A DNA stretch of 64,000 nucleotides from a virus, in IMG/VR virus record IMGVR_UViG_3300022848_000014, positions 9,734 through 73,733 of that record. One strand, written 5' to 3'. The notes under the pieces were generated by a model that saw only the letters and a program-made list of their open reading frames with translations, did no database searches and was not told the DNA's origin. Within the stretch, counting starts at the first letter, position 1; every line of letters starts with the position of its first letter. Positions 3,997 to 52,200 of the stretch are shown in pieces. The translations under genes were made by a program, and so were the position numbers.

Positions 3997-4027
3997 TTTG
4001 TTTTGAAATTATGGGGTTAAACTATTA

Positions 4028-26639: not shown

Positions 26640-28267
26640 ATTCTGTCGAATTGTGGTTTTAGTAATTTTAATTGTGCCTTGCGAATCTCTAAGTTCAAGC
26701 CATTTTCATCAGCTATTCCTAATTCATTGCAATCGGTTACAAACATATCAAAATCTTGGTTAATATTCAGGAAAGCGGTTGGATTATTATCCAAAGCCTC
26801 AATAGACATTCTATTCGTCCAAATATGTTCTACCAATCTGGAACAACTTTGACTCTGGTCGAATATTACAAGGAGTGCTTCCATTTCTTTGTCCCACTTC
26901 TCAGTCTCATAAATGTATGCCTCAAGCTGGTGCCTTTGTTCCGCTGGTATTGCTTCAAGATCATATTTATTTTGTGCTGCCTTTCTTTTAGCAATCAATT
27001 CAATCTTAGTTCTTAGATACTGGGTTTTGAAATGACTAATGCTTGCGCTTAATTGGGCGTGAACACTAACATCAATGCTTTGATCACCAAAATATCGATT
27101 CTTGTATTTTATTTGATCCATTTTTTTAGGTCTTTGATTAGATTGTTTAGCTCATCCCTCTTTGCTTCTAGGGTTATTTCGTCTTTTTTAAGTTTGCTGT
27201 TTTCTAGTTCCAATTCAGAAATTTGCTTCTGCATCATAACGAATGTGGCCTGACACCTAGAGATGTACTGAAAACTATAATCAAGAGCACCTAAAGCTTC
27301 TTTCTTTCGCTCAAAGGCAGGGGCTTCATTAATAGCTTTGACAGCCGCTTGGTGGTACTGCCTCACCGATTCCATTTTAAGTAAGTCAGTGTTTGTCTCT
27401 GCGGATATAAATTGGTCAAATGGCATTCCTTCGCTCATTGTTCATCGCTTTTTGCCTCTTGGCTGGTTCTTTTTTAGTTAGGATTTTCTTTGCCGCTTTG
27501 ACAGAATCCCTAAGTTCTGCGGGTATATTTGCTTGCTGGAAAAATGTTGCATTGTGATCCATTTGATCAAGAAAATCAAGTTGGTCTCTGGACATACCTT
27601 CTATGATCCTTTTACCATCCGTTGTCCACATGTAGTGATCTTCCTTGAGTATTCGCCCAATGACAGGGTGTTTATGCTGATTGGCCATCCTCTTCAAGAT
27701 AGAGGTGTACATATCTTGATCGGTTGTTGGTCTAATCATTTTATGCTGCAACATTTTAGCTATAACTATTTTGTAGTGGTCTTTAGAGTATGGCCCACCA
27801 AAGGAGTTAACGAGGTTGTAGCTGATGCTATGTATTTTCCAGAATTTCACCGCTTGCAGATATGTGTTGTACATACCCAGAATAATTAAGAAGTGGTCTG
27901 TAGTGAGCTTAAAATGCCGACTCTGAAATTTAGCTTTTAAGAAAGGTACTGAAGCGAAATTGATAAATATAGGGTTGCGCTGATGTCTGTTGACTTTCTT
28001 TTTCAATTCATGGTATGACTCTGCCATGCATTGTCGCTTTACCGCAAACCTAAAAGCTCCCTTGTAGGTATCAAACTCATCTTTGAATTTACACTTACCT
28101 AGAATGTGGCCATACCTCACAGCATACTGATGTGCATTTGGGTCCACAGCAGGATCAATCTTTCCGAATTTCATGTAAACGGATTTGTCCATGTAAATTT
28201 TACGCAGGTAATGGGCACTTATTCTACGGTAAATCAAGTGCTTTTCCAACGGAGTTAGCTTTGCCAT
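26597..28267 (-). CDS. Three hypothetical ORFs (26597-27121, 27109-27438, 27416-28267)
   Basis: Overlapping minus-strand ORFs between helicase and YqaJ. Confidence 0.6.
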
Positions 28268-29210
28268 CTATTTGCTTGGGGTATAAGTTAATTCCTAATT
28301 TCTTCTGATAGTATCTGTGCCTTTTTGCATCCCACTTAACGATGACCCGCTTAACGTAAGACCCCTGCTCTTTTACTTCTTCAGGCTTCTGCTTACCATA
28401 GAGTATGACCGAATCATTTTGCTCGTAGGGAAAGCCAGGTTCGATGTCAAGGTAGGTTGGTGGCCTCCATATTCCAATCATTGCCATTCCCCGTCGAAAC
28501 CACTCTTGGCCATGGGCTAATTCTTGAGGGTCTGGCGCTGGATAATAGAGCTGCATTTGGCCATCTATCTTAATTGCTACTTTTTTCTGGTCACGTAAAT
28601 GGACAACTACAATGTTGTAGCGCATTTTCTTGTCTGCATTTTTCCGTATCCAGATCAATTCCTTCTGAAGGACAATATCTCGACTGGGTTGTGATCTCCA
28701 ATCTATCTCAAGCTCATCAATCGGATCGACAAGTGTTATCTGGAATTCAATACCAAGTTCTTTCTCTACTTGATCCACTCTATTATACCAGTCTCTTAAG
28801 GCAACTTGCTCTTCAGTTCCCTTTTCCTCGTGGTCCAGGATAACGAAGTGCTCATAGACAAATGCTTCAGCAGTCATCCTTTCGGTCTTCGTCATTTGAT
28901 TATTGAAGGTGTCGATGTAGTCTTTCTCTGCTACCATCTCTGCAAGCTTCCTATAGATAGTGGCTGGCTTACCGGTCTCTGGGGACATTAGTATTGTCTT
29001 CATACCATATAGGATAGCCATATCAATAAGTAGGTCAAAGACCCATTGGGTTTTACCCGTATGCGGTGGGCCGTACACGTAGAGTGTAGTACCAAGGACT
29101 ACGGAGAATGGTTCGTGATAAACCTTAAGGGACTGCTTGTATCCACGTCCCACACCCTCATCGTATACCTTGTGCATTGTATCTCTGTGCTCGTCTAGTC
29201 TGCTAAACAT
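28224..29210 (-). CDS. SF4 (DnaB/twinkle-like) replicative helicase
   Basis: Walker A GPPHTGKT, catalytic SPE, Walker B LVDP, VVH. Confidence 0.8.
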   Translation of the reverse strand: MFSRLDEHRDTMHKVYDEGVGRGYKQSLKVYHEPFSVVLGTTLYVYGPPHTGKTQWVFDLLIDMAILYGMKTILMSPETGKPATIYRKLAEMVAEKDYIDTFNNQMTKTERMTAEAFVYEHFVILDHEEKGTEEQVALRDWYNRVDQVEKELGIEFQITLVDPIDELEIDWRSQPSRDIVLQKELIWIRKNADKKMRYNIVVVHLRDQKKVAIKIDGQMQLYYPAPDPQELAHGQEWFRRGMAMIGIWRPPTYLDIEPGFPYEQNDSVILYGKQKPEEVKEQGSYVKRVIVKWDAKRHRYYQKKLGINLYPKQIDGKANSVGKALDLP

Positions 29211-29378
29211 TTATTTAGTTAGTTTTTTTTCCACTTTTTCAATCCAAATAACAACATCCATAAGATCACAAGTGGGTATTCCTCGATCACATTCTGAGTC
29301 ATAATTATTAATACGCCTCATAAGTTCATCCTTAAACTTTTGAGCCGATACATTTTTTAATTTCTTCTTCATGATTAA

Positions 29379-29462
29379 CATATTTCTCCGTAAGTACTCC
29401 GAAAGACGTTGCTCAACAGTCGCTTAATGCCATTCGAAGAGAACGGCACGAAGCTTAGTGTT
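29379..29462 (+). repeat. 84-bp array-anchor element (putative attI-like site), copy A
   Basis: Reverse complement of 45051-45134 with 2 mismatches; ends in the GTT core; internal hairpin GCTT-TGCC-TTC/GAA-GGCA-AAGC. Confidence 0.85.
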
Positions 29463-29473
29463 AGCTGCAAGTG

Positions 29474-30307
29474 CTACGTTCCAGTTTTAATTGAAAGTTC
29501 GTACATATCAGCCGTAATAATATTTTTTTCTCCCACCCTCTCTTTTGAGATTTGATACATATCAAAATCATTTTCAATGCCAATGTAGTTTCTTTTTGTT
29601 TCAAAACAAGAAAGTCCAGTTGTATTACTTCCGCAAGTATTATCAAGAACCCAATCATTTTCATTTGAGTAGGTTTTAACAAGGTATTTAATCAACTCCA
29701 GTGGTTTTTGAGTTGGATGTAATGCTGATTTTTGTTTATCAGTAGCAAAACTCAAAACACTTTTCGGGTATCGTTCTGTACTATCATAAGTTGTAAGCCC
29801 ATGTTCACCATAGTTAGTAGTCTTTTTAGAGTTTCTTTTATGCTTTGCTGTGCTTACCTTTCTTTCGTGTCCAGTAGTCTTTTGTGGGTTATACGTTGGT
29901 AATCTCTTGTAGAATACCAGTATGTCTTCGTGGCTTCTCAATGGCATTCTTTTAGCGTTTAAGTGTCCTGTTGGGGTTGTTTTTTGCCAAATTAGATTAT
30001 ATCTATGTAGCTTCTCATTTGAGAGCATCAACCTTGCAGAAAATTTATCCTGTCCGAAAAGAACTATTGCCCCATTTTTAACTATTATTCTTTCGTATTG
30101 CTCCCAAAGTAAATTCAAATCAATGAGTGAATCCCATTTATTCTTAGTTACACCATAAGGTAAATCACAACAAATTAGGTTTATGCTTTGGTCGGGTATT
30201 TGTTTCATCATCTGAAGGCAGTCTCCAAACCAAAGAATGTTTTTGGTTTTTTCAAAACCATCTTTGCCACCGCTCAAAAAAATATTATTACTACGTTCGT
30301 TTTTCAT
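29474..30307 (-). CDS. DNA N6-adenine/N4-cytosine methyltransferase (beta class), cassette A1
   Basis: DLPYG, HPTQKP, DNTCGS motifs. Confidence 0.92.
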   Translation of the reverse strand: MKNERSNNIFLSGGKDGFEKTKNILWFGDCLQMMKQIPDQSINLICCDLPYGVTKNKWDSLIDLNLLWEQYERIIVKNGAIVLFGQDKFSARLMLSNEKLHRYNLIWQKTTPTGHLNAKRMPLRSHEDILVFYKRLPTYNPQKTTGHERKVSTAKHKRNSKKTTNYGEHGLTTYDSTERYPKSVLSFATDKQKSALHPTQKPLELIKYLVKTYSNENDWVLDNTCGSNTTGLSCFETKRNYIGIENDFDMYQISKERVGEKNIITADMYELSIKTGT

Positions 30308-30339
30308 ATCAAAGTTTTGTGTTTAAAATCCGCACCAGT

Positions 30340-30437
30340 CAGCTAACATGGTATATAAAAAATAGCCTATTAAAGTTCGGTGTATAATATCAATGTTTGT
30401 GGTCAGGCTACTTTTCATATACCTGTCCGTTAGCAAC
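30340..30437 (+). repeat. attC-like palindromic site A1
   Basis: CAGCTAAC-ATG-GTATAT..TAGCCT...AGGCTA..ATATAC-CTGTCC-GTTAGCAAC. Confidence 0.8.
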
Positions 30438-30445
30438 AATAAAAA

Positions 30446-30643
30446 TTATTCCTCCCACCAGTAAAGCACCTTAAAGAAGCTCTTTATCATTTCAGGAACA
30501 TCCCATTCATCACCTAACCAAGTGCTTTCCCCTTCACCATTGTTACAAGAAGGTGCATTGTTTTTTATTCTGTATTTACCAACAGAAGTTGGTTGTCTTT
30601 CGTTTGTGCTTACCCAAGCCATAATTTTAAAAGTTGCTAACAA
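30446..30643 (-). CDS. Small hypothetical protein, cassette A2
   Basis: MAWVSTNERQP...W (DUF551-like N-terminus); probable true start at the ATG near 30622. Confidence 0.6.
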   Translation of the reverse strand: MLATFKIMAWVSTNERQPTSVGKYRIKNNAPSCNNGEGESTWLGDEWDVPEMIKSFFKVLYWWEE

Positions 30644-30729
30644 AAGCTATAAATAAAAGCCTTGTTAAGGTTTGTGTGTGAATTGAACTTTGTGTTGAAG
30701 GCTTCAATTCATAGCCTAGTCATTACCTG
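30633..30729 (+). repeat. attC-like palindromic site A2 (core mutated GTT>ATT)
   Basis: GTTGCTAAC-AAAA-GCTAT..AAGCCTT...AAGGCTT..ATAGC-CTAGTC-ATTACCTG. Confidence 0.75.
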
Positions 30730-30736
30730 CAAGTGC

Positions 30737-31876
30737 TTAGACTTGTGCTAAACTTGAAGATTCGTGCTTATCATCCCGTAATAATATTTTTTTTCTCCCC
30801 TCTTTTGATTCTGCTAATATTAGAGCTTTGAATATTTGAAATGCAACCTGGGGTACAATTGCATTTCCGTATGCTTTTATTGATTCTTGTCGCCATTTAG
30901 GAAAGGTAATTCCGTCCAGTTGGTTGGAAATCCCATCATTTCCGCTACAAATTGGGGATTGAGTTGGCCATCTACCATCATAGTAAGTCCAACTTGCTTT
31001 CCTTTCTCCAAACGATTCAGAACGCATTTGTCCTTTGGGTTTCCCCTGTTCCTGTTGTCGCTTGCATTCGGTGTCGGCAACATTCCTTTTTGATTCCACT
31101 TCGCTACCGTTTCTTCCAAATTCCCTTTGTTCCTGTTTGCTAATTTCTCGCTGTTTAGATTGCATCCGTTTACTTGGTTCGCTCTCGGTGTCGGTATTAA
31201 TCCCTGAGATATTTGATGTGATAATGTTGTTTGAACTTTCGTTCCGTCTTTCCTGTACCAAGAGGTTTCCTTCCAAATCCAACCTTTTTCTTTTGCTCTC
31301 TCTGGCGTTATGTTCGCCATTGGATTTGCGCTCGGTGTTGATAGCAATAAACCAGACCCTATCTCTTCTATGGGGAGCGTTGACGGCAGCAGCTGGAAGT
31401 ACACACGGTTGTACTTTGTACCCTTCATTTTCCAAGTCAGCTTGCACCTCGTTGAAAACCAATCCGTCATTCCAACTAATGAGACCAGAAACATTTTCTG
31501 CCACAACATATTTGGGTTTAATCTCTCGAATTGCTCTAAGCATTTCTGGCCAGAGGTGTCGGTCATCTTCTTTACCAAGTCTTTTACCTGCTGAGCTGTA
31601 AGGTTGGCAGGGGAATCCTCCTGTGAGGATGTCAATTTTTCCTCTGTGAATAGAGAAGTCTGTTTTGGTAATGTCTTCATAAGATATTGCTTTAGGCCAG
31701 TAATGTTTTAGTATTCGTTGACCAAATTCGTTCCATTCGCAATGAAATACGTTTTCCCACCCCATCCATTCAGCAGCTAAATCAAAGCCACCAATTCCAG
31801 AGAACAGAGAACCGTGTTTTAGGCTATCGCCTAATTTGCCATCGCTCAAAAAAATATTATTACTACGTTCAGTCAT
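30737..31876 (-). CDS. DNA C5-cytosine methyltransferase (alpha polypeptide), cassette A3
   Basis: SLFSGIGG, GGFPCQP, ENV, RDRVW, GNAIVPQV. Confidence 0.92.
   Translation of the reverse strand: MTERSNNIFLSDGKLGDSLKHGSLFSGIGGFDLAAEWMGWENVFHCEWNEFGQRILKHYWPKAISYEDITKTDFSIHRGKIDILTGGFPCQPYSSAGKRLGKEDDRHLWPEMLRAIREIKPKYVVAENVSGLISWNDGLVFNEVQADLENEGYKVQPCVLPAAAVNAPHRRDRVWFIAINTERKSNGEHNARESKRKRLDLEGNLLVQERRNESSNNIITSNISGINTDTESEPSKRMQSKQREISKQEQREFGRNGSEVESKRNVADTECKRQQEQGKPKGQMRSESFGERKASWTYYDGRWPTQSPICSGNDGISNQLDGITFPKWRQESIKAYGNAIVPQVAFQIFKALILAESKEGRKKILLRDDKHESSSLAQV
30877..31680 (-). CDS. Nested alternative-frame ORF, putative MTase beta polypeptide (TRD/motif IX)
   Basis: 267 aa open frame inside the C5 MTase; repeated L(L/I)PTP units and LNPQFVAEMMGFPTNWT. 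Confidence 0.65.
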   Translation of the reverse strand: MKTLPKQTSLFTEEKLTSSQEDSPANLTAQQVKDLVKKMTDTSGQKCLEQFERLNPNMLWQKMFLVSLVGMTDWFSTRCKLTWKMKGTKYNRVYFQLLPSTLPIEEIGSGLLLSTPSANPMANITPERAKEKGWIWKETSWYRKDGTKVQTTLSHQISQGLIPTPRANQVNGCNLNSEKLANRNKGNLEETVAKWNQKGMLPTPNASDNRNRGNPKDKCVLNRLEKGKQVGLTMMVDGQLNPQFVAEMMGFPTNWTELPFLNGDKNQ

Positions 31877-31910
31877 TTAATTAAAGTTTGTGTTTATTAA
31901 TCGCACCAGT

Positions 31911-31970
31911 CAGGTAACACGCTATAAAAGCCATTGAAAAAACGGCTCTTATAGCTATTCGTTAGGCACA
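31911..31970 (+). repeat. attC-like palindromic site A3 (60 bp)
   Basis: CAGGTAAC-AC-GCTATAAAAGCC...GGCTCTTATAGC-TATTC-GTTAGGCACA. Confidence 0.8.
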
Positions 31971-31983
31971 ATTAAAACAAACT

Positions 31984-32817
31984 TTATTGCATATTAATTT
32001 CGCTCTCCGTTTCGCTTCTTTTATCTAAGTCGTTTATCCCACACATACCATTACAATCAAACAATGGTTTAGGCTCTCTACCTTTCATCATACTAATATC
32101 TTTCATTTGTGGGTAGTCTTTATGTGGTTTTAGAAATACTAATCCACCGCCTTTACTTTGGTCTTTCAACATAGTTATTGGCTTACCTTTAACATTTGTT
32201 AGTTCATGCTCCATCGCTGCCATTTTATCAAATTTATCAGGAAAGTCTCTACTCATTTTCTGCCAATATCCAATTCCACCTTGTACGCATCCAGTCTTAA
32301 AACAATTGTTATTTAAGAACCCTAATTGATACATATTTGGAACTTCAATACTTGCATCTTGTACAATCTTAATACAATCCTTTTTATTCAATCCATGCAT
32401 CATTAAAGGAAATAAAGGTTTTGTTTGTGGATGGTTTAAAACCATCCCTTTTGCTCTCTTATATTCGTCAAGTTCAAACCCAAAAATTTGATGTTTCCAT
32501 TCATTAGTCTTTTCCCACGTTTCACGTACTTGCCTTTTCATTTCAGAACTACATACAGCACCCTTAGCATTGTTCAGTGCTTTGTATCTTCGCCAAACTG
32601 CTTGAACGCTTTCGTGCTTTGTACTACTTATAGTCTCAATCTCTATGCCATACCAATCGGCACAGTCTTTCATAAATCGGTAAGTATCATCGTCTTCATT
32701 ATGTGTATCAATAAAAATAATTCTTACATTTTCTTTACCATACAAATCAATTCCAATTTTACAAGCTACCGCACTTGTAATTCCACCACTCCACCAGCCA
32801 ATTATCTTATATTTCAT
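31984..32817 (-). CDS. PAPS-reductase/PP-loop family protein, cassette A4
   Basis: WSGGITSAVAC PP-loop, C..EMK, NNC..GCVQGG.GYW. Confidence 0.8.
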   Translation of the reverse strand: MKYKIIGWWSGGITSAVACKIGIDLYGKENVRIIFIDTHNEDDDTYRFMKDCADWYGIEIETISSTKHESVQAVWRRYKALNNAKGAVCSSEMKRQVRETWEKTNEWKHQIFGFELDEYKRAKGMVLNHPQTKPLFPLMMHGLNKKDCIKIVQDASIEVPNMYQLGFLNNNCFKTGCVQGGIGYWQKMSRDFPDKFDKMAAMEHELTNVKGKPITMLKDQSKGGGLVFLKPHKDYPQMKDISMMKGREPKPLFDCNGMCGINDLDKRSETESEINMQ

Positions 32818-33218
32818 ATTGCAAATGATTTTAAATATTCCACACCATCTTCTAATGTGTCAAAAACAATATCAGAAACCTGTGTTACAAAGGATAAGTA
32901 ATTATCTTTTATTGTTTCGTGATTTGGTTCAAGTACAGTTATAACCGTTTTACCCAATCCTTTAGCATAACCAGCCTCACAACATAAACCAATACAGCTC
33001 GTGTTTGTTTTTTCAATATAAACAAATAGTATATCACTTTGCTTTATAAAATGCAAATCCCATTTTCCGTACTCATTCACATTCATAATAACCCTTTCGT
33101 TATTCTTAAACTCTTTATCTTTTGGGTTAATCCATTCAATATTATCAGAACATTCTTTTACTTTATTAGCCCAATCGCTCTTAAAACCACCAGCTAAATA
33201 TGTTTTTTGTTTTATCAT
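32814..33218 (-). CDS. Nucleoside 2-deoxyribosyltransferase-like protein, cassette A4
   Basis: YLAGGF, WINP, WDL..I..SD, G...EAGYA..LGK. Confidence 0.8.
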   Translation of the reverse strand: MIKQKTYLAGGFKSDWANKVKECSDNIEWINPKDKEFKNNERVIMNVNEYGKWDLHFIKQSDILFVYIEKTNTSCIGLCCEAGYAKGLGKTVITVLEPNHETIKDNYLSFVTQVSDIVFDTLEDGVEYLKSFAI

Positions 33219-33251
33219 TGTATATATTTTTCATATTTTATAATTAATAAC

Positions 33252-33387
33252 TGTGCCTAACACGGTATAAAAATAATAGCGGTTTTAGGTCTTTATTTAA
33301 GGTTAGTAATATTTATTTAATTCTGTTCTTAATCGTTTGGTTCGTGCGTTTCAATCCGCTACTATTCTTATACAACACGTTACCAAC
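33252..33387 (+). repeat. attC-like palindromic site A4
   Basis: TGTGCCTAAC-ACG-GTATAA.AATAATAGCGG...CCGCTACTATT.TTATAC-AACAC-GTTACCAAC. Confidence 0.8.
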
Positions 33388-33395
33388 AATAAAAA

Positions 33396-33554
33396 TTACT
33401 CGTATTGGTCGCTGTCTTTTATCGTTTCAAGAGCACTAATCCTGTCTTGTAAAACTTTCTTCTCTCTCATTAATAACATTATATCTTCTTCCGCTTTTTT
33501 CAAATATAATTTAGTATCCTTTATTGCTGCATCAATTTTTGTCATTTTACTCAT
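33396..33554 (-). CDS. Small coiled-coil protein (52 aa), distal cassette remnant
   Basis: Read by hand: MSKMTKIDAAIKDTK...DQYE*; flanked by GTTACCAACAATAAAAATTA, nearly identical to the start of cassette A2. Confidence 0.5.
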   Translation of the reverse strand: MSKMTKIDAAIKDTKLYLKKAEEDIMLLMREKKVLQDRISALETIKDSDQYE

Positions 33555-33943
33555 GGTGTCTTGTGCTTTTCAGTTTTGTATACGATTCCTCCTGGTACGA
33601 AAACTTTACCGTTGTATTTTAGGTGTTCATCCTTGTTGTCCGTCCAAAATAATTCAAAATCGGAATAAACACTAAGATCATCTCGATCAGAGTAGACGCG
33701 AAACTTCATCGACTCTTCTTTTCTTAGCTTCAGGATAGCCTCTCCCTCACCCACGAAAATATACTCATGTCCGTAGTCTGCTGTCAATGACTCCACATAT
33801 ACTTCTGAAGGGAAATACAAGTGATAGGTAGTTTTCTGTGCTTTACACGAATTGAATAGGAAGAAGGTTAAGAAAATTATTCCTGCAGCGAGGGCGCTTA
33901 ATGTGTAAATGTACTTGCCAATAAAATGATCAGTCCTTGTCAT
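33551..33943 (-). CDS. Membrane-anchored hypothetical protein
   Basis: N-terminal TM segment. Confidence 0.6.
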   Translation of the reverse strand: MTRTDHFIGKYIYTLSALAAGIIFLTFFLFNSCKAQKTTYHLYFPSEVYVESLTADYGHEYIFVGEGEAILKLRKEESMKFRVYSDRDDLSVYSDFELFWTDNKDEHLKYNGKVFVPGGIVYKTEKHKTP

Positions 33944-33955
33944 GTTGCTTTTTTT

Positions 33956-34363
33956 TTATTGTTGTTTAATTTTACGTGGAAGCCTCAGGTACCATCTATT
34001 TCCTAAGGGCCTCATACTTTTAAGTTCAAAGACAAGAGCATCAATGAACTCTCTATCATACTTGTCTTTTTCTAACTTAAGACAATTCCTACGATTGAAA
34101 ATAATATTTAAGTTTCGATCAAAGTACTGCCGAATTTGTGCTGAGGTAAACTTTCTCTTGTTTTTATGTGGAAGCCTCAGGTACCATTTATTCCCTAGCA
34201 CCCTGAAGGTTTGAACTCCATCAAAAAGAATGTCATTGTACACCTGCTCATAGGTGTATATTTCTATTTTCTGACAATTACCACGATTGAAAATAAGATT
34301 TAAGTTTCGGTCGAAGTACTGCCGAATTTGTGTTTGGGAAAACTTTCTAAAATAATTTCTCAT
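33956..34363 (-). CDS. Hypothetical protein with internal tandem duplication
   Basis: RKF...QIRQYFDRNLN.IFNR.NC...LGN.WYLRLP occurs twice. Confidence 0.7.
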   Translation of the reverse strand: MRNYFRKFSQTQIRQYFDRNLNLIFNRGNCQKIEIYTYEQVYNDILFDGVQTFRVLGNKWYLRLPHKNKRKFTSAQIRQYFDRNLNIIFNRRNCLKLEKDKYDREFIDALVFELKSMRPLGNRWYLRLPRKIKQQ

Positions 34364-34529
34364 CTATTTATCTGTTTACCTTGGATTATCTCCATGTGCT
34401 TAAGGTTGTATTGGTGTCGTGGCTGATGTAGATTACAAAACTTGAGACTCCAACACGCCCCTTTATCGCGAACCAACCACTCTGAAGTAGCTCTTTTACC
34501 ACAATTGCATTTCCCATGAACCGCCACGG

Positions 34530-35105
34530 CTAATTTCCTGAAAACATTCCTGTGGATGCCTCTGGTGCTTTTGGGTCTGGCATAGAAAGGTATCGGTCAA
34601 GTATCTTGTCCCTTAAGATGTACTCTGGGGTCAAATACTTCATTCCATTCTCTTGGTGAAACGAATCCATCTTTGCCCGATAAATAGCTTTGTGTATTTC
34701 CTGAATGCCATATTTTTCGAAAGCTTCAGCAAAGATCTTCTTAGAGCTTTTATCACCCCTCGACTTCTTGCTGGTAATCTCATTGAATCGCTTGATAAAC
34801 TCCTTGTACTGGGGGTGATTGGTGATGCTGATCTGCTTAAGCTTAAGAAGCTTGTAAACATTAGCTTCCATATCTTTTAGGGTCCCTGGCACTCTCTCAA
34901 GGACTCCACACAAAATAAGTTCGTCTACCGCAAACCATTCCTCACGTCTCTCATAAACCAAGACTTGATTATTACGGAGTTTTATAGGTGTGTCGCTTGG
35001 ACTCTCCTTTTGACGAATCGCCAAACATATTAGTCTCAAGTAAGACTGAAATGTTTCGGGTGAATGGGTATTGAGGTGATTGAAATCACTTATGTCTAAT
35101 AGCAT
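34530..35105 (-). CDS. Replication initiator-like protein with conserved phage C-terminal domain
   Basis: FN.IT.K...MKYLTPEYILR...DRYL (Phg_2220_C-like). Confidence 0.6.
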   Translation of the reverse strand: MLLDISDFNHLNTHSPETFQSYLRLICLAIRQKESPSDTPIKLRNNQVLVYERREEWFAVDELILCGVLERVPGTLKDMEANVYKLLKLKQISITNHPQYKEFIKRFNEITSKKSRGDKSSKKIFAEAFEKYGIQEIHKAIYRAKMDSFHQENGMKYLTPEYILRDKILDRYLSMPDPKAPEASTGMFSGN

Positions 35106-35415
35106 GTTTTGGGGTCTTTAAGTAATTGATTGCGGTTTCATTCATCAAAATAAACTTGGGGCCAGTCATTGGGTCTAACTCCCCTTTGGCATTAAGTTTA
35201 GGAAACGGATAGACAACTTCAAAGATTGATGTTCCTGGCTCTATCTTACGCGAAATTGTTGATAGCCCTACTCTGGCTAATGACGCAAACACACCTATAG
35301 GAATCGCGTTCCACCGCAGGTAATACCTTGCGCTTTCTCGGTCTACACCCTGTTTGACTATTTGTTCCTGAAGATCAATATTGAGACCCAGGACTGGCCT
35401 TAGTTTATATGTCAT
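35086..35415 (-). CDS. Hypothetical protein, possible HTH
   Basis: First gene after the 35434 promoter; FASLARVGLSTISRKI. Confidence 0.55.
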   Translation of the reverse strand: MTYKLRPVLGLNIDLQEQIVKQGVDRESARYYLRWNAIPIGVFASLARVGLSTISRKIEPGTSIFEVVYPFPKLNAKGELDPMTGPKFILMNETAINYLKTPKHAIRHK

Positions 35416-35433
35416 TTGTGGTTTATTTGATTA

Positions 35434-35464
35434 CAAATGTAGCAGACTATTCTAGGAAAACAAA
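35434..35464 (-). promoter_or_regulatory. Bacteroidota housekeeping-sigma promoter TTTG-N19-TACATTTG
   Basis: Exact -33/-7 consensus with a 19-nt spacer, upstream of the leftward replication arm. Confidence 0.8.
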
Positions 35465-35472
35465 TTTTACAA

Positions 35473-36156
35473 TTAGAATTGTATTACTGAGTATTGAATT
35501 CCAATTCCAATGTTTAACCCAAAACCGTTGTCCCCAATGCCATAAGACACTGAGGGACCAACGCTGAATCTTTTTGGCTTCAAGCTGTAATTGAAAGAGC
35601 TCAGGTCTTGGGTATAGGTATCTGGATTTAATGATGTCGCCATTATCTGTAGCGTATCGGGTCTGAATAGATTCTTCTCCCTATGTACACTGTAATCAAA
35701 CTTGTTCAAAATCCTCTGCTGAAGGTTAAGGCTGTCTACCCCCATTGTTACAGTTCCTTCTATCCACTCCGTACTGAAGGAGGATTGATAGACAGGCATA
35801 CTATCACGGTATTCGATTATTGTGACCTCATCTGTGCCAATGTCGTATAGAGTCTCTACATCATGGCTTATAGCGGTAATTGTGTTCTTAAGGTCTTTTA
35901 GGGTATTCTGGATTCTCAGGTTTGTCCCCTCTAATCCACGAAGGGCTAACAACTGATCCCGATTCTGAATCTCTAGGGAATTCTTTTGAGCCACTTGATG
36001 ACCATGCTTGTTCTGCCAGGACCGCAGACTATCATTGAGGGCTATTTCATTCTTCTTAAATGTTTGAGTCCTTTGATTGGATTCAACAATAACACCTGCG
36101 GAACAGGCTATTGCTATTATGGCTACTAACCATGCTACCTTTTCATTCATACTCAA
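35473..36156 (-). CDS. Spanin-like envelope protein
   Basis: N-terminal TM/signal, coiled coil, C-terminal amphipathic beta hairpin ending in F (FSVGPSVSYG...IGIGIQYSVIQF). Confidence 0.5.
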   Translation of the reverse strand: MSMNEKVAWLVAIIAIACSAGVIVESNQRTQTFKKNEIALNDSLRSWQNKHGHQVAQKNSLEIQNRDQLLALRGLEGTNLRIQNTLKDLKNTITAISHDVETLYDIGTDEVTIIEYRDSMPVYQSSFSTEWIEGTVTMGVDSLNLQQRILNKFDYSVHREKNLFRPDTLQIMATSLNPDTYTQDLSSFNYSLKPKRFSVGPSVSYGIGDNGFGLNIGIGIQYSVIQF

Positions 36157-40599: not shown

Positions 40600-40932
40600 A
40601 TGAACGAAGCAAAAATGTCAGAACCAGGATCAAGACAGACCTGTTCATCAGTATTACGTGATATTACTGATTCAATAGGCCATACCCAAGATGTTCTAAA
40701 CGAACTAGAGCGTAATATGGGTCAATTCTTTGACTCTTCCTCAGAAGATGATGCCAAAGGGCCCATAGCTGCAGAAGCAAAAAACTCCTTGAATGGTGAG
40801 ACAATCCATGAGGTAGTGTTTGGTCATGGTGACAAGTTTTCTTTTCACACGCTAAACCAAATTGCCCACTTAACTAGTACACAGTCGAGTCAATTGACAA
40901 GGATTATGGATCAAATAAACACGAACCTTTAG
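40600..40932 (+). CDS. Hypothetical protein
   Basis: 110 aa ORF. Confidence 0.6.
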   Translation: MNEAKMSEPGSRQTCSSVLRDITDSIGHTQDVLNELERNMGQFFDSSSEDDAKGPIAAEAKNSLNGETIHEVVFGHGDKFSFHTLNQIAHLTSTQSSQLTRIMDQINTNL

Positions 40933-40942
40933 TAAAACATAA

Positions 40943-41013
40943 GCCAAGACCCATTTGCTTTTTACAAATTGTAACTCGGCATGGGAAACTCCCATTAGTA
41001 GGTGGGTCTTGGT
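40943..41013 (+). ncRNA. Structured intergenic element, copy 2
   Basis: GCCAAGACCCATTTGC...GTAGGTGGGTCTTGGT, inner hairpin ATGGGA/TCCCAT. Confidence 0.55.
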
Positions 41014-41035
41014 AATTTTATAAACCACAAAAAGA

Positions 41036-43282: not shown

Positions 43283-43507
43283 ATGAAAAACAATAAAATT
43301 ATAAGCAGTTTTAAATATTGGGCAATCACTAGAAAATGGTTGTGGCAAAGAGTCGTTTTTGATAATGGTGTTGTTGGCAGAAACTATCACAGATATGACC
43401 ATATCTTGTATTCTTATTGTCAAGGAATGGGTGATAATGGAGAGTATGGAGGTATTAATACCGTAATAAAATTACAAGTGGAATCATCTATGCGTAATTG
43501 TGCCTAA
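43283..43507 (+). CDS. Hypothetical protein, distal cassette remnant of array B
   Basis: Stop codon lies within the TGTGCCTAAC core. Confidence 0.55.
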   Translation: MKNNKIISSFKYWAITRKWLWQRVVFDNGVVGRNYHRYDHILYSYCQGMGDNGEYGGINTVIKLQVESSMRNCA

Positions 43508-43565
43508 CGGTTTGTATATGAAATCGGCTGACGATAGGAAGCTGTTTTATATACCGTGTTAGCCA
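43499..43565 (-). repeat. attC-like palindromic site B2
   Basis: Plus strand: TGTGCCTAAC-GGTTT-GTATATGAAA...TTTTATATAC-CGT-GTTAGCCA. Confidence 0.8.
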
Positions 43566-43602
43566 TCTGGCTGTGGTAAATTAAGAACTAAAATTAAATA
43601 GA

Positions 43603-44247
43603 ATGAAAATATTAATAGCTTGTGAGGAGAGCCAAGAAGTTTGTAAGGCTTTCCGAGAAATAGGATTTGAGGCTTATAGTTGCGATATGCAAGAATGTAG
43701 TGGTGGTAAACCTGAATGGCATATTGTAGGTGATGCAGTTGTAGAAGCGTATAGTGGTAAATATGACCTTATGATAGCGCACCCACCTTGCACTTATATT
43801 AGTAGAGCTGGTGCAAGATGGATGTACCCAACAGCAGGAAATTTAAGCCAAGAAAGATTTAATAAAGCAATGGAAGCGAAGGATTTGTTTATGAAATTAT
43901 TGAACGCTCCTATACCTTATATTGCTGTTGAGAACCCAACATTGTTAAAAGTAGTTGGATTGCCTAAACAAAGCCAAGCGGTGCAACCTTATGAATACGG
44001 ACACCCTTATAGTAAAAGAACTCTGCTGTGGATTAAAAATTTACCACTATTAAGCCCAACCAAAATAGTAAGCGAATATAAGCCGTACTTACCAAGTAAT
44101 ACAGGGGGCAAAAAACGAGGGCAGAAATATCAATTTAAGAACATAAGCCAAAAGGAAAGCAGTAAAACTTTTAGCGGAATTGCAAAAGCTATGGCTGAAC
44201 AATGGGGAAACTTCATTAAAAGCGATAATGTAGCAGCTTGTGGCTAA
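43603..44247 (+). CDS. Phage-type C5-methyltransferase-like protein, cassette B2
   Basis: ILIACEES, AYSCD, DLMIAHPPCTY, VENP, PYEYGHP..KRT.LW, AMAEQWG. Confidence 0.8.
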   Translation: MKILIACEESQEVCKAFREIGFEAYSCDMQECSGGKPEWHIVGDAVVEAYSGKYDLMIAHPPCTYISRAGARWMYPTAGNLSQERFNKAMEAKDLFMKLLNAPIPYIAVENPTLLKVVGLPKQSQAVQPYEYGHPYSKRTLLWIKNLPLLSPTKIVSEYKPYLPSNTGGKKRGQKYQFKNISQKESSKTFSGIAKAMAEQWGNFIKSDNVAACG

Positions 44248-44312
44248 CGTGTTGTATATGATTAAGCGATAGCGACCCTTTTTAGGGTTAATTATATACG
44301 GTGTTACCTGCA
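44241..44312 (-). repeat. attC-like palindromic site B1
   Basis: Plus strand: TGGCTAAC-GTGTT-GTATATGATTAA...TTAATTATATAC-GGT-GTTACCTGCA. Confidence 0.8.
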
Positions 44313-44335
44313 GTACGGATTATTAAAAACGAAAT

Positions 44336-45040
44336 ATGAAAAGAAACAAAATATATTTAGGGGATTGTTTAGAGTTGATGCCTAAACACGTAGAAGATAA
44401 AAGCGTTGATATGATTTTTTGCGATTTACCTTATGGAACAACACAAAACAAATGGGATAGCGTTATACCTTTTGAGCCACTTTGGGAACAATATAAGAGA
44501 GTTATAAAAGATAATGGAGCTATTGTGTTATTTGGCTCACAACCTTTTACAAGTGCTTTAATTATGAGTGAACCTAAAATGTTTAAATACTCTTGGTATT
44601 GGTTAAAAAATAGAGCTACTGGAGTTTTAAACTCTAAAAAACAACCGTTAAGAAATATTGAAGAAATTTGTGTTTTTAATATAAAGAAATATAACCCACA
44701 AGGATTGATTGAGGTGAACCAACCAAGTAGAAACAGCAAGAAAGATTACGATAACTATGGGAAAGGAACTAGTAAACAATACACTCAAAAATACACAAAC
44801 TACCCAAAGCAATTGATTGAGTTTAATAGCGTGCAAAGAACAACGCACCCAACAGAAAAGCCATTAGATTTAATTGAATATATGATTAAGACTTACACAA
44901 ATGAAGGTGATTTGATACTTGATAATACTTGTGGAAGTGGAACAACTGGAAGAGGAGCGAAGAACTTAAACAGAGATTATATTATGATGGAGCAAGAAGA
45001 GAAGTATTATGACATTGCTTGTAAAAGACTACTAACTTAG
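44336..45040 (+). CDS. DNA N6-adenine/N4-cytosine methyltransferase (beta class), cassette B1
   Basis: DLPYGTT, HPTEKP, DNTCGSGTTG. Confidence 0.92.
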   Translation: MKRNKIYLGDCLELMPKHVEDKSVDMIFCDLPYGTTQNKWDSVIPFEPLWEQYKRVIKDNGAIVLFGSQPFTSALIMSEPKMFKYSWYWLKNRATGVLNSKKQPLRNIEEICVFNIKKYNPQGLIEVNQPSRNSKKDYDNYGKGTSKQYTQKYTNYPKQLIEFNSVQRTTHPTEKPLDLIEYMIKTYTNEGDLILDNTCGSGTTGRGAKNLNRDYIMMEQEEKYYDIACKRLLT

Positions 45041-45050
45041 TATTGCAGGT

Positions 45051-45134
45051 AACACTAAGCTTCGTGCCGTTCTCTTCGAATGGCATTAAGCGACTGTTTA
45101 GCACCGTCTTTCGGAGTACTTACGGAGAAATATG
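45051..45134 (-). repeat. 84-bp array-anchor element (putative attI-like site), copy B
   Basis: Inverted copy of 29379-29462, 82/84 identical. Confidence 0.85.
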
Positions 45135-45908: not shown

Positions 45909-46267
45909 TGGAATTCTGGTTTTTCGGTTTTTCGTATTGTCTTAATATCATTCACAAACTCACTATCTAATCCTACCCCTTCACCATCTGGATCGGTGAA
46001 GTAGTCAGTGACTAATGGGAAGAACCTCTTAAGCATGTACCAAGCGCCCATTAAGACGATTGAGAACACACCGATACCCGCCAGAGACGACATTAGGTAC
46101 CTCATTGATATTGCTGGCATTTCATCCGGGCCAAAAATGTACCCAAGGCCGTACAACCCCCCATATACAATTCCAACCCACACTAGGATATTAATAACGT
46201 CTTTCCCCATTACCAGGGACCAAGCTTTCTTGATCAATTTAATTGATTTACTTTTTTGCATTTTCAT
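45824..46267 (-). CDS. Holin-like membrane protein
   Basis: Three hydrophobic segments; overlaps the endolysin. Confidence 0.55.
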   Translation of the reverse strand: MKMQKSKSIKLIKKAWSLVMGKDVINILVWVGIVYGGLYGLGYIFGPDEMPAISMRYLMSSLAGIGVFSIVLMGAWYMLKRFFPLVTDYFTDPDGEGVGLDSEFVNDIKTIRKTEKPEFQCFRRPLFFLSIYAFFVLCAAAMIAAIL

Positions 46268-49200
46268 CTTTCATTTTTTGAATTGATAAATCTCGTTTGG
46301 CTTTACGCTCTTCGTCTCTTATTTTTTTTGCTGCAGCTCTTTCTAGTGCAACTTTAACTCCAGGCCCCTTTTCAAGAGCTAGTTCCCATGTTTTCTGTGT
46401 AATGTCTACCTCATACTTTTTAGCCATCATATCCTCTAAAGCTTTTTGGGCTGTTCGATTAATTCCTGGCTTATCAGGATTAACCACTTCCTTAAGATAT
46501 GAGTAGTGAACTAATTTTTGTTCTTTCTCAGTGATCCTTTCTTGTGGGATTTTCTCGATGTAGTTGTAGAGGGTCATTGTATATCGATAAGTCTCGTCGT
46601 CTAGGTCTTCAACAAACCTACGGACTAAAGGCATTTGGTTCACACTTCCCTCTTTATCAAAAGTAGCTATGCGAACTGCTTCTTGGGCTATACCCCCAAA
46701 AACCTCATTCATTATGTAGTCAAAAGTCTCTGGACTAATACTCACACCCATTTTGTCATAGAGTTGTTGGGCACCCTCTATGTAGGCTTCATTTGTACTT
46801 TTATGGTAAATCTCATGATCAGCCTTTCCAATAGTAAATTTCGGATAAATTGGACTCATCTTATAATCTTTATTCATGGAGACCTCAGCACTTTGGGAAG
46901 CAAGTACTGGCAAAAAGGCACTTACCCAGTTAGCTTGGTTCCCACTCACAGGGTCAACCACCATTTGTACCGAATGCAATTGATTAAAGAAAGCTCTGGC
47001 TGGTGTGATCCTGCCAGATTGAAGGTCATAAGCAGCTTCACCCATTGACATAAATAGTCTTAGGAAAGAATAGGATTTCGGAATCTTGAAGGGCTTTGTT
47101 GGTTCAACTGGATTATAGATGTAAGTGTTCTGAGTCCAGTCCATCGGTGATTCGGTCATCATTTTTAGCTCATCCTCTTCATCCATCATGCTGTAGAGTA
47201 GCATTTTGTTTAGGTAGGCAAATGAGGCTGCTGCTGCCAGAGCTTTTCTACCAGACTTTGACTTGAGTAATTGCCCAGTCTTGGCCACACCCTGTATTCC
47301 TGCATTAAGGAAAAGGTACATGCTATTGAGAATAGTCATTTGAGACCCTTTTTTCTCAAAGTTTAGGGATATGTTTTTAGCGGCTCCCGCAGCCTGTTGT
47401 GGGGATAACCCTGCATCCCTGAGTGATGCATATACGGCTAGTCTGTTGGACATCTCAAAAACCTCATTGATTCCTAAGGCTGTGTCCATCATGGCGTGAA
47501 GCGTCTCTTTGGCCATGTTTGTCCCTTTGTTTGCTTTAGACTTCTCACCAAGTTTTTTTAAGCTGTCAACCTGATCTTGTATCTGGCCATAGTTAGCCCA
47601 TGACATGTACATCCCTTCAGCCCTTGCCTCACTCAGATATTGCATCATGTCACCCCCTTGGTCTGTGGCACCAAAGTAGTTTTTAGCAATTGTGGGTCCA
47701 GCAATACGAAGGTTTGCTAGATATGCACGTCGAATTCCCTTTAAGTCATATCGATCTTTTTCCACTCCTAAGTTTGCAAGGACATCCTGTGTATCACGAG
47801 CAAAGTTGGGAACACCAAAGAATATGTTAAGGGATGTTATGAGAGACCGTTGGAAATTAGTCATTGCCCCAAAACCTTTGATAATTTTGCCCTCCCACTT
47901 TCCTGTCTTTCGATTACTTGGGATAAGCGCATTATAGAGTCCTTCATGCCTAACCTCAAGATAAACGATTTTACCCCCGGGCATACGAACCTTTACTGAG
48001 TTCGTTTTCACATTGTCAGGAACAAGGTCATTGTAAGAGATTATGTCTCCCGTATCTGGATCGATGTCAGGTATTCCTCTTGCGGTATGCACTTTCCATA
48101 CTGAAGGATCGGCATTTTGACGAGCAAGTTCCACGAGCGCTCTATTGGCATTATTCTTCTCTACTTTCTCAATGGTTTTGGCCAGGTTTACTACCGCTTG
48201 ATTTAATGGGTCATAGACTTGCTCTGAAGTATATGAGCCCCTTCCTTCAGCGGCCAGGATGTCAGGAGAAGTGCTACCACCTTTTTTCTTTGACTTTGAG
48301 TTAAAGAATGCAGGGTCAATAACAACGGGCATGTAGTTTGACCATTCAATATCTGATCCTGTTTTATCCCCATTTAGTAGGGCTTGGTATTGCTTTTCGT
48401 CGATGAAATCGTTTTCATAGAGTATATCAAGATTCTTTTCCAAAACTTCCTCCCTGAATTCTTGGGCAAACTCATCTAGGTCTTTACGCTTTCCATCATA
48501 GCTATCTAATATGGCCTGTGCGTCTTTATCGCTCATTCTGGCTCCTTCCTCTACAATTCGATATAATTCCACCTCATTGTTCTCGATAGCCTCAATTTGG
48601 GCAGCGTAGAACTGTTGTCCTCTTGTGGTTTCAGCATTTTCCATCTTAGCAGTTAGTTGAGCAACTTTTTCTTCCTGCTTCTTGATTGACATATCCCTGA
48701 GTCTTGCATTACGCTCAGGAACGTGAAGGGCGTACATGAATTGGGAAAGGTCTGTGAGTGTTAATCCCTTCTTTTTCATTCTTCCATTAAGGGAAGCTTT
48801 GTTCTGCTTTCTCTTTTCAAATACGGTGCTTCTGCCTGATATTTGGAAAGTGGTACCAGGGTCCGCGCCATAAATATAGGTCTTGAGTGCATCGATTTGT
48901 TCTGCAGTCTTTGATCTAACAAGCTCTCGTTTCGTGTAAGCATTAAGTGCGTCTGGTAAGTTTTTACCCTTAAGCTTCTCGATAGACTGTTGAATTTTCT
49001 TAAGCCATATATCCCCATCTTGGAAAGCTTGCCTGAAGCTGGTAAACGTTTCAAAGCCTTCTGTTTTAGATAGGGGTATTGTCATGCCAGATTCATTCAG
49101 AAAATCAATTTCCCTTTGAACCCTTCCCATTAGGACATCGGCCAATTTCTCATCCATGCCTAGTTTATCTACGACAAACCTCGTGATTGCTGCAGGGTCA

Positions 49201-52200
49201 GCGCCTCCTTGCATGGCCATTACGATTGAAGCTCGAATCTTCATGAAGTCCCTTGACATGTTGACTGTCATAAACTCCTTGTAAAGGTTCTCATTACGAA
49301 GCTTACCATCAAACATTGCTCTCAAGTGAGGGGAAAGCGCCTGATTCATGGTAAGCTCTTCAGCCACTTTTTGGGTAAATCCCTCTAGTGTCAAGTTCTC
49401 AATTTCCTTGGCATTCAATTTACCAGACCACATACCAGAGGCTATGAGGGGCTTAGTAAATTGATTGAATGCTGTGCTTAAGAACTTGCGAAATTTCTTT
49501 CTGAAGTTGTCGGGCTGCTTATCAACCTCTAAAGCTTTATCGGCTATGGCATCAGTCAACGCATCTAAGTATGGGTTCCTAGACTTCCTTTTTTTGGCTT
49601 CTGCCAAATACTTTGTGCCTTCCATCATTTCCTTCACTTGATGAAGTAACTCAGGTCGGTTTTGCATTGCTGGGAGTATCCATGCTTTTGCAAAAGTCTT
49701 GAAAGTTTCCTTTGGGGTGATTGTGGCAGGATTGAAGTAGATGTTCCCATCCATGCTCACAATTACTTGTTGCCCCGCATATTCATCTCCGAGTGCTTCA
49801 ACTTGCTCTTTGAATTCTGAGAAGTCAAATGAAACTTTTAGTCCAGGGAATGCTTTACCCAGTGCAGTTGCAATCTTGGACGCATATCTGGTATTGGCCT
49901 CAGTTGACTCTTGCGTGTCTGGGAGTGTTACCGATTGCATATCGATACCTTCGAAAGCCTGTATAACTTGATCCCCCAATAGATCCCCAAAAGTCATCAC
50001 GGCCATTGCCTCTGCACCGTTGTATCCTTCAGCTTCTAAAGCCGCAATGATTTCCTCATTAGTAAACCCTTGTGATTGCAGCAATTCTATAATGGCCTTA
50101 ATCTCTGCGTGTTCATTAAATCCTACTTGGAAGAGGGGTTTGCTCTCAGCCTCGACTTTATCAATTTCAACATTACGATCATCAAATACGACATAATTTG
50201 CGTCGGTGTATTCCTTATTCCGTGGTTTTGGTATACCCATGGAGAGTGTTCCAACAGGATAGCGGATGCCATCGATTCCTTTATGGGTCAACCTCATTGA
50301 TGCTTGTTGTGGACTCATGTATTTAGTGAGCGTAAAATACAAGAAAGCTCCACTAAAGAGATCCGCATCAGTTAAGAGCTCGACTAATTTATCAGTGTCA
50401 TTATCAAGATCGTATTGCTCGTTAAAATGCTCCATGAGCACCTCATGTAAATCTGGTTCAGCAGCGTATGTTTTCCCATCATTTGTGTCAAAATAAATTT
50501 CGTAACCTAGTGCCTCATAATCACCTTGCTCTGAATTGCTTACATCAACAGCTACACTGTTTGGGTCTGGTACTTCTAATATTCTACGAAGTTGATCTTC
50601 TGGCAGTGCGTTTTTCCATTCTAGGTACTCGTATTCACTTGGTTCTTTCCCTTTATGAATGGTAGTATGATAAACTTGGCCACCACCAATTGTCCATGGC
50701 TTAACCTCTCCGCTTTTTATTAGTGGAACAATTTTGGCAAAGGCAGCAGCTTTTTTATGTGTGGAGCTTTCTTTATTTGGATCATTCTTAGCCCCTTCAG
50801 CCCACTTCTTCTCAAAGTATTCTGCCCTCTTAATGTAATCGGCCTTGAGTCTAGGGGATGCATTCATGAGGTTTGATTCAAACACCTGATCTAAAGCCTC
50901 TCTCTCGTTATAATCAAAATCTAAAGGATCTCCGTCTTTTGATTTGATTTCCCAATTTTTAGTGTCTTGAATTTTTCGTGAGAGTGTTGTAGCATAATCC
51001 TGGGCTATTTCTTTTTTACTTGTGAAATAGAGGCCATAGCCAAAAGCTTGAGCACCCTCACCAGTCCCAATCTTATCTGAGTTGAACTTATCAAATAAAA
51101 ATGGTGTTCCGTGATATGCTCTGACTTCTTGGCTGGTCCCTTGATTTCCAAAAAGGATTATTTGTTCTTCTCTTGATATTGGTGATCCATCCCCATAATT
51201 TTCAGTCGCAGATGGTGGGGTTTCCTTTCGTTGTCGAGGACTCATTGCAGCCCTGTTCTGTACGTTTCTAGCCTCAGTCTCTCCCGCTAGTGATTGGTAT
51301 AGCTTGTGAGCCACATCACTAGGGACTCTTTTAGAAATTATTGCTGTTTTCTCTGAGGTTAATTCTTCGGATTTGAGTGTTTCAATTTCAGCTAGTAAAA
51401 AATCACGTCTACCATCAAGTGTTTCTAAAGCTTCTTGTAACACTAAACTTACGGGCTTACCTAAGTTCGCATCTTCGCTCTGAGAACTGAAATACATTAA
51501 TTCAGTTGATGCATCATAGGAGCCTAATTTCTCAGTCCCAAAGTTACCTTGTATAAGAGCATTAAGATTGTCTTTAGCTACCCTTTCCTCTCTTTGAAGT
51601 TTCTGAATTTCATCCGTTAAATATCCATTTTCATCAGGTCTTTCTTTTTTATTCAGGTCATACAGTTCTTCTGTCTCTTTCTTTTTTTGCCTAAAAAGAA
51701 GTGTCAGATCAGAAAGTTCATTTCTAAACGCTTCATCAGTCTGAAATTTATTAAGAACATCCTGAGTAACCTTTTTGCTATCAGATACATCTAGCAGGTC
51801 TTTTCTGGTTGCAGTGATTGCAGACGTAGAAAGTTCATTTTGCTTGCTTGCAGGTAGAGATGCTATGACTGATTGTGGATTGCCTCCCATAGCAAAACCT
51901 TCAATCATTTGAATAGCGTGTTGCAGTTCGTGTATGAAGGTCGATCCCTTGTCTTGAGCGTATGGAGTTACTTGAAGCACTTTTGTTTCAGAGTTGTAAG
52001 ACCCCTGAAGCCCCCCGAAATCCATGAAGCCACCTTTTTTTGATATTTTAATATCAAGAAGAGCTGGGTAAAGCTTGAATATTTCTTCGTATGGACTAAT
52101 GACTTCGGTTATTGAAACTGTTTCAGTACCAAAAAGTTTCTGTGTAGCGAGAGCTTCAAACGCTTCAGTATTGAACATTGGTGGTTGTACTTCATACTTC

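Follow-up and report, generated by a model that had tools for sequence, protein, structure and literature searches.

An integron-like array of DNA-modification gene cassettes in a salt-lake phage, with hairpin sites of a family found beside Xer-like recombinases

Palindromic sites that begin with AAC and end with GTT separate the genes at positions 29379-33554 of a 64,000-nucleotide stretch of viral DNA (the window in what follows; positions 9,734 to 73,733 of IMG/VR record IMGVR_UViG_3300022848_000014), and they raise the question of whether these genes are mobile cassettes and, if so, what kind of recombinase moves them. The window makes up most of a 73.7-kb viral record that carries 127-bp direct terminal repeats and comes from a salt lake. 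An original prediction, made from the letters alone, had read the block, here called array A, as an integron-like cassette array with DNA-modification cargo. We concluded that array A is a genuine, recently active integron-like array with DNA-modification genes and that it belongs to an Xer-type family, not to the classical integrons. The fuller reading, which we consider likely though short of certain, is that array A truly consists of four mobile gene cassettes and is part of an integron-like system common in Bacteroidia chromosomes and in the phages of these bacteria, on which an Xer-like enzyme acts in trans.

Array A consists of four cassettes, whose cargo genes all lie on the minus strand, with four covarying hairpin sites (S2 to S5) and, at its start, a fifth, different hairpin (S1, the anchor). 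The eight core motifs that the prediction had singled out are all in place, and the two ends of every unit are reverse complements: GTTAGCTG at 29460 and CAGCTAAC at 30340 over 8 bases in cassette 1, GTTAGCAAC at 30429 and GTTGCTAAC at 30633 over 9 bases in cassette 2, ATTACCTG at 30722 and CAGGTAAC at 31911 over 8 bases in cassette 3, and GTTAGGCACA at 31961 and TGTGCCTAAC at 33252 over 10 bases in cassette 4. The features of array A are as follows, with scores from a covariance model, R1, that is described below.

29379..29462, minus strand: anchor element (S1), a hairpin from AAC at 29415-29417 to GTT at 29460-29462, plus 33 conserved bases up to the ATG of the next open reading frame (ORF)
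29461..30429, as written on the plus strand: cassette 1, TTAGCTG ... CAGCTAAC, hairpin S2, G
29474..30307, minus strand: N6/N4 DNA methyltransferase, 277 amino acids (aa) (PF01555, 2.4e-27)
30339..30437, minus strand: hairpin site S2, attC-like (R1 97 bits, E 1e-19), with a 19-pair stem on the minus strand
30430..30722, as written on the plus strand: cassette 2, TTAGCAAC ... GTTGCTAAC, hairpin S3, A
30446..30622, minus strand: 58-aa ORF with no family match in Pfam or PHROGs
30633..30730, minus strand: hairpin site S3, final base A instead of G (R1 50.3 bits)
30723..31961, as written on the plus strand: cassette 3, TTACCTG ... CAGGTAAC, hairpin S4, G, with 8-bp complementary ends
30737..31876, minus strand: C5 cytosine DNA methyltransferase, 379 aa (PF00145, 4.9e-51)
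31910..31969, minus strand: hairpin site S4, short-loop class (R1 43.8 bits; fold z-score -3.6 on the minus strand)
31962..33381, as written on the plus strand: cassette 4, two genes, TTAGGCACA ... TGTGCCTAAC, hairpin S5, G, with 10-bp complementary ends
31984..32817, minus strand: 3'-phosphoadenosine 5'-phosphosulfate (PAPS)-reductase-like (PP-loop) protein, 277 aa (PF01507, 3.3e-6; phrog_424, 1.6e-49)
32814..33218, minus strand: nucleoside 2-deoxyribosyltransferase-like (NDT-like) protein, 134 aa (PF15891, 1.3e-9)
33253..33387, minus strand: hairpin site S5, of the long-loop class and last in the array (R1 33.9 bits), after which backbone TTACCAAC begins

Beyond the shared TAAC and GTTA, the matched variable bases come to 4 + 5 + 4 + 6 = 19 across the four units, for which our own arithmetic gives a chance of ~4^-19. 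The two cores within any one site agree in TAAC only (GCTAAC at S2) and are otherwise mismatched. The five AAC...GTT sites do separate the genes in the way that had been described. No partner GTTGGTAAC for the core of S5 was found further along the array, and because backbone TTACCAAC follows S5 without a partner farther on, array A ends there. The Pfam and PHROGs matches bear out the DNA-modification cargo, the PAPS-reductase-like and NDT-like genes of cassette 4 overlapping each other. The block had also been called AT-richer than the backbone; the direction is right, and the excess is modest (GC content 0.33-0.41 against 0.40-0.43 in the flanks). Cassettes 1 and 3 encode unrelated catalytic cores (N6/N4 and C5), yet they have ~75 nt in common at each end (window positions 29460-29545 and 30263-30350 against 30722-30808 and 31835-31929), spanning the 5' leader, the first ~16 codons (ERSNNIFLS.GK) and the C-terminal tail; the impression is of one shell enclosing different enzymes.

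The sites belong to a large family. A pattern derived from them retrieved 112 viral contigs, many of which carry long arrays in which the right core of each site and the left core of its successor are reverse complements (9/9). In an alignment of thirteen sites of ~85 nt, 16 of the 19 stem pairs showed compensatory changes, and this degree of covariation was reached by none of 500 shuffles, with slid controls far lower. On the strand that folds best, the consensus reads TAACG, a 5-nt spacer, a stem with one invariant G.T pair, a loop, the return stem, nT and GTTA; one arm has a 5-nt spacer and the opposite arm one of 1-3 nt, and the loop falls into three size classes. The TAAC ... GTTA cores are present in all sites, and only some of them are a strict fit to the RRRY of the inverted attC cores (RYYYAAC / GTTRRRY). 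No T-tail of an intrinsic terminator and no excess of promoter signals was found at the sites.

A covariance model had been proposed as a check, and R1, which we built from sites of other contigs plus S2, gave significant matches at four of the five array A sites (S2 to S5). In the whole 73.7-kb genome it makes exactly six matches, four in array A and two in a second array, array B. Altogether, R1 found 140 matches in 61 sources, nearly all of them viral contigs; its sites occur in the cultured Cellulophaga phages phi17:1 and phi18:3 and in Polaribacter phage P12002L, and it also matches arrays in bacterial genomes. S3 is ~90% identical to sites in three of the loci (L025, L089 and L097) and 77% identical to a site of phi17:1. 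S1 (29415-29462) scores 10 bits and forms a separate sequence class with the same outline as the other sites: AAC, spacer, 14-pair stem, spacer, GTT. Two candidates elsewhere in the window were not accepted: 40928-41025 (15.7 bits) has no AAC/GTT and resembles an ordinary stem that follows a gene, and 12252-12357 (14.9 bits) has no cassette partner. The latter, a solitary hairpin with TAAC ... GTTA ends, stands at a gene-strand switch.

Are these units exchanged? The same units occur in other viral contigs with boundaries inside GTT, the outcome expected of the cassette comparison that the prediction had suggested. Window positions 29460-30431 are 89% identical over 972 bp to positions 3730-4700 of viral contig L070, in unrelated flanks, and the identity begins and stops inside GTT triplets. 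L098 and cassette B1 of array B share 99.6% identity, again with boundaries inside GTT at both ends, and L067 and L053 have one whole cassette in common that is GTT-bounded at both ends. Over all pairwise locus matches, the homology breakpoints located at sites (14 viral and 4 bacterial, the latter from a small sample of three independent pairs) all fell at one particular end of the site, the opposite end having none. Crossover thus occurs between G and TT, and the first bases of a unit complement its own far core. On the plus strand a cassette reads TTAxxxx, cargo, x'x'x'x'TAAC, hairpin, G, and it follows from this layout that the hairpin moves with the gene whose start it precedes. The classical relation of gene and site does not hold here, since the genes lie on the opposite strand and the hairpin travels with the downstream gene. 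A megablast search of window positions 27000-36000 against cultured phages gave no match, and no relative was found when related loci were sought with the 328-aa protein of a neighbouring gene.

Variation was also seen within the habitat. Contigs of four salt-lake metagenome runs (contigs, not raw reads) were placed on window positions 27500-35500, gaps in their cover not being counted as evidence, and pieces of them terminated at 29460, 30428 and 30724. The cassette 2 piece, 30428-30724, occurred in three runs in other contexts with 0 differences to the window, at a depth of 13-73 against 1-7 for the backbone (3-70 times). Loose contig ends showed cassettes 1, 2 and 3 preceded by other hairpin arms (before 30723 in the case of cassette 3), S4 followed by another cassette, and the anchor hairpin joined directly to cassette B1, whereas in the window cassette B2 stands between them; two loose ends were checked by DNA search and the remaining ones were read from contig placement. 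Position 30722, just before TT, is A in the window and G in another context, in keeping with strand exchange between this base and TT. The order and context of the cassettes vary in natural populations, then, with breaks at the GTT cores; a lack of such variation had been named as evidence against a cassette array. One joint, 29473 to 30428 in run X5, lies off the core and may be a misplaced end of a similar cassette. The 58-aa cassette is far commoner than the phage backbone in the lake metagenomes (depth up to 73 against 1-4), sits in several contexts and carries a widely shared small gene.

We found no tyrosine (PF00589) or serine (PF00239) recombinase in the whole 73.7-kb genome, and no homologue of the array recombinase described below; nor did five further viral records with arrays, of which two are complete, show a PF00589 match. 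The phage encodes a primase, RecE-like and RecT-like proteins, one GroEL-like protein and one virion structural protein (PHROGs). The earlier remark that no tyrosine recombinase is visible in the window therefore extends to the entire genome, and the suggestion that the integrase might lie elsewhere in it falls away. Because the phage encodes no recombinase, recombination must act in trans.

The enzyme came into view beside sister arrays. The site pattern led to arrays in Flavobacteriia-type genomes (Aquimarina, Gelidibacter, Polaribacter and others). In one such bacterial locus, L236, thirteen R1 sites were examined, and of the 12 pairs of neighbours 11 have cores that are 9/9 complementary. 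A gene for a 385-aa recombinase ends close by, with 34 nt between its stop codon and the partner of the last core. The encoded protein contains PF13495 and PF00589 domains; the XerA model gives it its highest score, and its alignment with archaeal XerA structures runs from end to end. It places 24 residues opposite the 67 residues (180-246) of VchIntIA that hold the IntI-specific domain, and its TIGR02249 score of 202.7 bits is under the integron-integrase cut-off of 265. Homologues stand beside arrays in L178 and L237 and occur in L239 and L120 as well, and a 271-aa homologue is encoded directly after arrays, adjoining a portal gene, in phage contigs L049, L245 and L246. The integron-like reading is thus upheld as regards cassette logic with G/TT crossover but not as regards a classical IntI, the sister-array recombinase being Xer-like and without the insert. 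In L237 (G009:C5:698000-717999), several copies of the Xer-like recombinase gene lie among the sites, some of them frameshifted or fragmentary.

Viral and bacterial arrays differ in the orientation of their genes. Of 64 viral cassettes that could be called, 60 carry their cargo ORFs on the R1 strand, against 1 of 29 bacterial ones; relative to the sites, the recombinase gene has the sense orientation in three phage loci and the antisense one in three bacterial loci. Since viral and bacterial loci share the crossover end, the bacterial layout is the classical one (gene, then hairpin), and it is the phage cassettes that are inverted. Phage transcription runs toward the anchor, and viral and bacterial loci have hairpins in common with up to 88% identity. 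The opposite gene orientation of phage and bacterial cassettes is a new regularity in need of explanation.

The anchor, ~85 bp long, recurs nearly identical and inverted at the end of array B, 15.6 kb away. Four other viral contigs, with flanks that otherwise bear no relation to the phage, have its hairpin core without any change; only a pattern scan of viral contigs brought them to light, and a blastn-short search of the anchor against loci L001-L239 returned nothing. Two of the loci, L240 and L243, are 99.2% identical over 4.57 kb starting exactly at the AAC of the anchor hairpin and are unrelated before it, a four-cassette array standing ahead of this AAC in L240 and other genes in L243. 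The anchor is always at the array end where relatives have the recombinase gene. S1 may therefore be an attI-like entry site, with a candidate crossover between G29460 and T29461. L243 also has a second, diverged (77%) copy of the anchor region 6.5 kb upstream in direct orientation (L243 positions 10-100 and 6592-6641). The features of array B are as follows.

43500..45134, plus strand (opposite to array A): array B, with sites at 43500-43566 and 44240-44311 (R1 30 bits each)
43603-44247 and 44336-45040, plus strand: methyltransferase genes of array B (phrog_757, PF01555)
45046-45134, inverted relative to S1: second anchor copy, a repeat of 29379-29467

The two anchor copies (29379-29467 and 45046-45134) form an inverted repeat that brackets a divergent promoter region, and recombination between them would invert the bracketed segment. 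The first 14 bases of cassette 4 (GTTAGGCACAATTA, 31961-31974) recur reverse-complemented at 43495-43508, which is the backbone flank of array B's last site; the start junction of cassette 4 and this flank may share an origin. The 56-aa ORF that follows the anchor has no similarity to the phage recombinase of L049, so the idea that the start of a recombinase survives in it is unsupported. Beyond array B, a single ORF of 3664 aa occupies window positions 46248-57242 on the minus strand.

By analogy with integrons, the hairpin would fold from single-stranded DNA and so juxtapose AAC and GTT, a tyrosine recombinase would swap strands between G and TT, and a cassette would leave as a circle or enter at the conserved anchor hairpin S1. 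As to the enzyme, an Xer-like recombinase without the IntI-specific insert is the likeliest, and, because the phage encodes none, it would be supplied in trans from the host's own array or from a co-infecting phage. The phage cargo lies on the folding (bottom) strand, which puts each hairpin 5' of its gene, and the phage operon reads through the genes toward the anchor. Two methyltransferases, the PAPS-reductase/NDT pair and a small ORF, together with the two methyltransferases of array B, would then make up an exchangeable DNA-modification set against host restriction, from which the cargo enzymes probably protect the phage. More tentatively, and as something we regard as possible rather than probable, there would be one machinery and two cassette pools kept apart by orientation, with integrase-less phages using invariant S1-type hairpins as a phage attI and borrowing the Xer-like recombinase of the host or of another phage to capture anti-restriction genes during infection. 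A cassette that crossed between such pools would be antisense to local transcription and hence silent.

Several observations weigh against our account. The bacterial breakpoints come from just three independent pairs; no circular cassette junctions were seen in the lake contigs; and in the sample compared no cargo was common to viral and bacterial loci. The genome encodes no recombinase; the action of an Xer-like enzyme on S1 to S5 is putative, as is the presence of that enzyme in the host. S1 has no R1 match, its role as entry site being suggested by position, conservation and two comparisons.

An alternative is that array A is a cluster of attC sites lacking integron integrases (CALIN) of the classical kind, with ordinary attC sites recombined by the host's canonical IntI. 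The AAC/GTT cores, the G/TT breakpoints and the cassette-end signature are indeed classical features; Qi et al. 2023 (PMC9892861) classed the sites of Polaribacter phage P12002L as a CALIN, and one of these, P12002L_attC2, which stands in the anchor position, was recombined by IntI1. However, of six sites, IntI1 failed to recombine just P12002L_attC1, a member of the present family that had been predicted by HattCI only (PMC9892861), and hardly any integrons were reported in Bacteroidetes by IntegronFinder 2.0 (PMC9024848). Among 151 evenly sampled Bacteroidia genomes, 30 had R1 sites and none an IntI over the cut-off, the sister-array recombinases lack the IntI insert and score below that cut-off, and the asymmetric 5/2 bulge with its invariant G.T pair seems, in a comparison by description, unlike the extrahelical-base layout of attC. 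We therefore consider a classical CALIN unlikely.

It is also conceivable that the hairpins are RNA or regulatory elements, such as processing sites, terminators or promoter-linked stem-loops of the kind known from T4-type phages, and that genes are swapped by homologous recombination between repeats, perhaps through the RecE-like and RecT-like proteins that the phage encodes. Exchange of this kind would spread breakpoints over the repeat rather than confine them to one triplet, and it leaves the unit-specific complementary cores unexplained. The hairpins do lie on the sense strand just upstream of genes, where they fold better by virtue of G-U pairs, and the ~75-nt ends common to cassettes 1 and 3 would suit such exchange; against this, there are no T-tail terminators and no excess of promoters at the sites, and in bacteria the same sites are antisense to the genes and adjoin a recombinase. 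This explanation we regard as quite improbable. Highly improbable, in our view, is a fossil array, assembled elsewhere and inherited vertically after recombination had ceased in the phage lineage: a genome without a recombinase and a final A in place of G at S3 would fit it, but one lake holds window-identical cassettes (0 differences) in several other contexts. We thus favour recently mobile cassettes on which an Xer-like enzyme acts in trans.

Clusters of attC sites without an integrase, with methyltransferase cargo, have already been described in virulent phages, P12002L included (Qi et al. 2023, PMC9892861), and P12002L_attC1 is an R1 match between two methyltransferase genes. For the Xer-type cassette system itself, we found no description in the literature. 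In the accepted view, IntI with its extra domain is what defines an integron, and Bacteroidota rarely have one. Here, cassette logic appears on a plain Xer-like recombinase, with sites in about one-fifth of the sampled Bacteroidia genomes and in many phages, and the origin of integrons from Xer becomes testable. For virulent phages, the system would offer a route by which anti-restriction methyltransferases are exchanged gene by gene, and the cultured Cellulophaga and Polaribacter phages with sites of this family provide laboratory systems.

The phage arrays resemble the published phage CALINs in having methyltransferase cargo in virulent phages, and they differ from classical integrons in that IntI1 failed to recombine the single family member on which it was tried (PMC9892861). 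With classical integrons and CALINs they have in common promoterless cassette arrays, imperfect hairpins with AAC/GTT cores, crossover between G and TT, cassette starts that complement their own far ends, and a distinct site at the entry end. Unlike classical integrons, the system has an Xer-like recombinase without the IntI insert, and its bacterial arrays have the recombinase co-oriented with the cassettes and the entry site abutting its 3' end. The 5/2 asymmetric spacer and the invariant G.T pair seem, by description, to set the sites apart from classical attC with its extrahelical bases and roughly symmetric unpaired central spacer, and the cargo genes of the present phage are all on the bottom strand, whereas classical cassettes have top-strand cargo with attC 3' of the gene.

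Integrative mobile elements exploiting Xer (IMEX), the Vibrio CTX phage among them, use host Xer enzymes, and the folded single-stranded attP of CTX is recombined by XerCD. The likeness is that a phage without an integrase would use an Xer-family enzyme on a hairpin folded from a single strand; whereas CTX integrates its whole genome at dif, single genes here move within arrays at dedicated sites, with a dedicated array-linked paralogue as the enzyme. The promoter early stem-loops (PeSLs) of T4-type phages combine an early promoter with a stem-loop and are thought to act via homologous recombination. They too are stem-loops upstream of small phage genes that are tied to modular gene shuffling, but the family described here is distinguished from them by exact breakpoints, unit-specific cores and a site-specific recombinase beside sister arrays.

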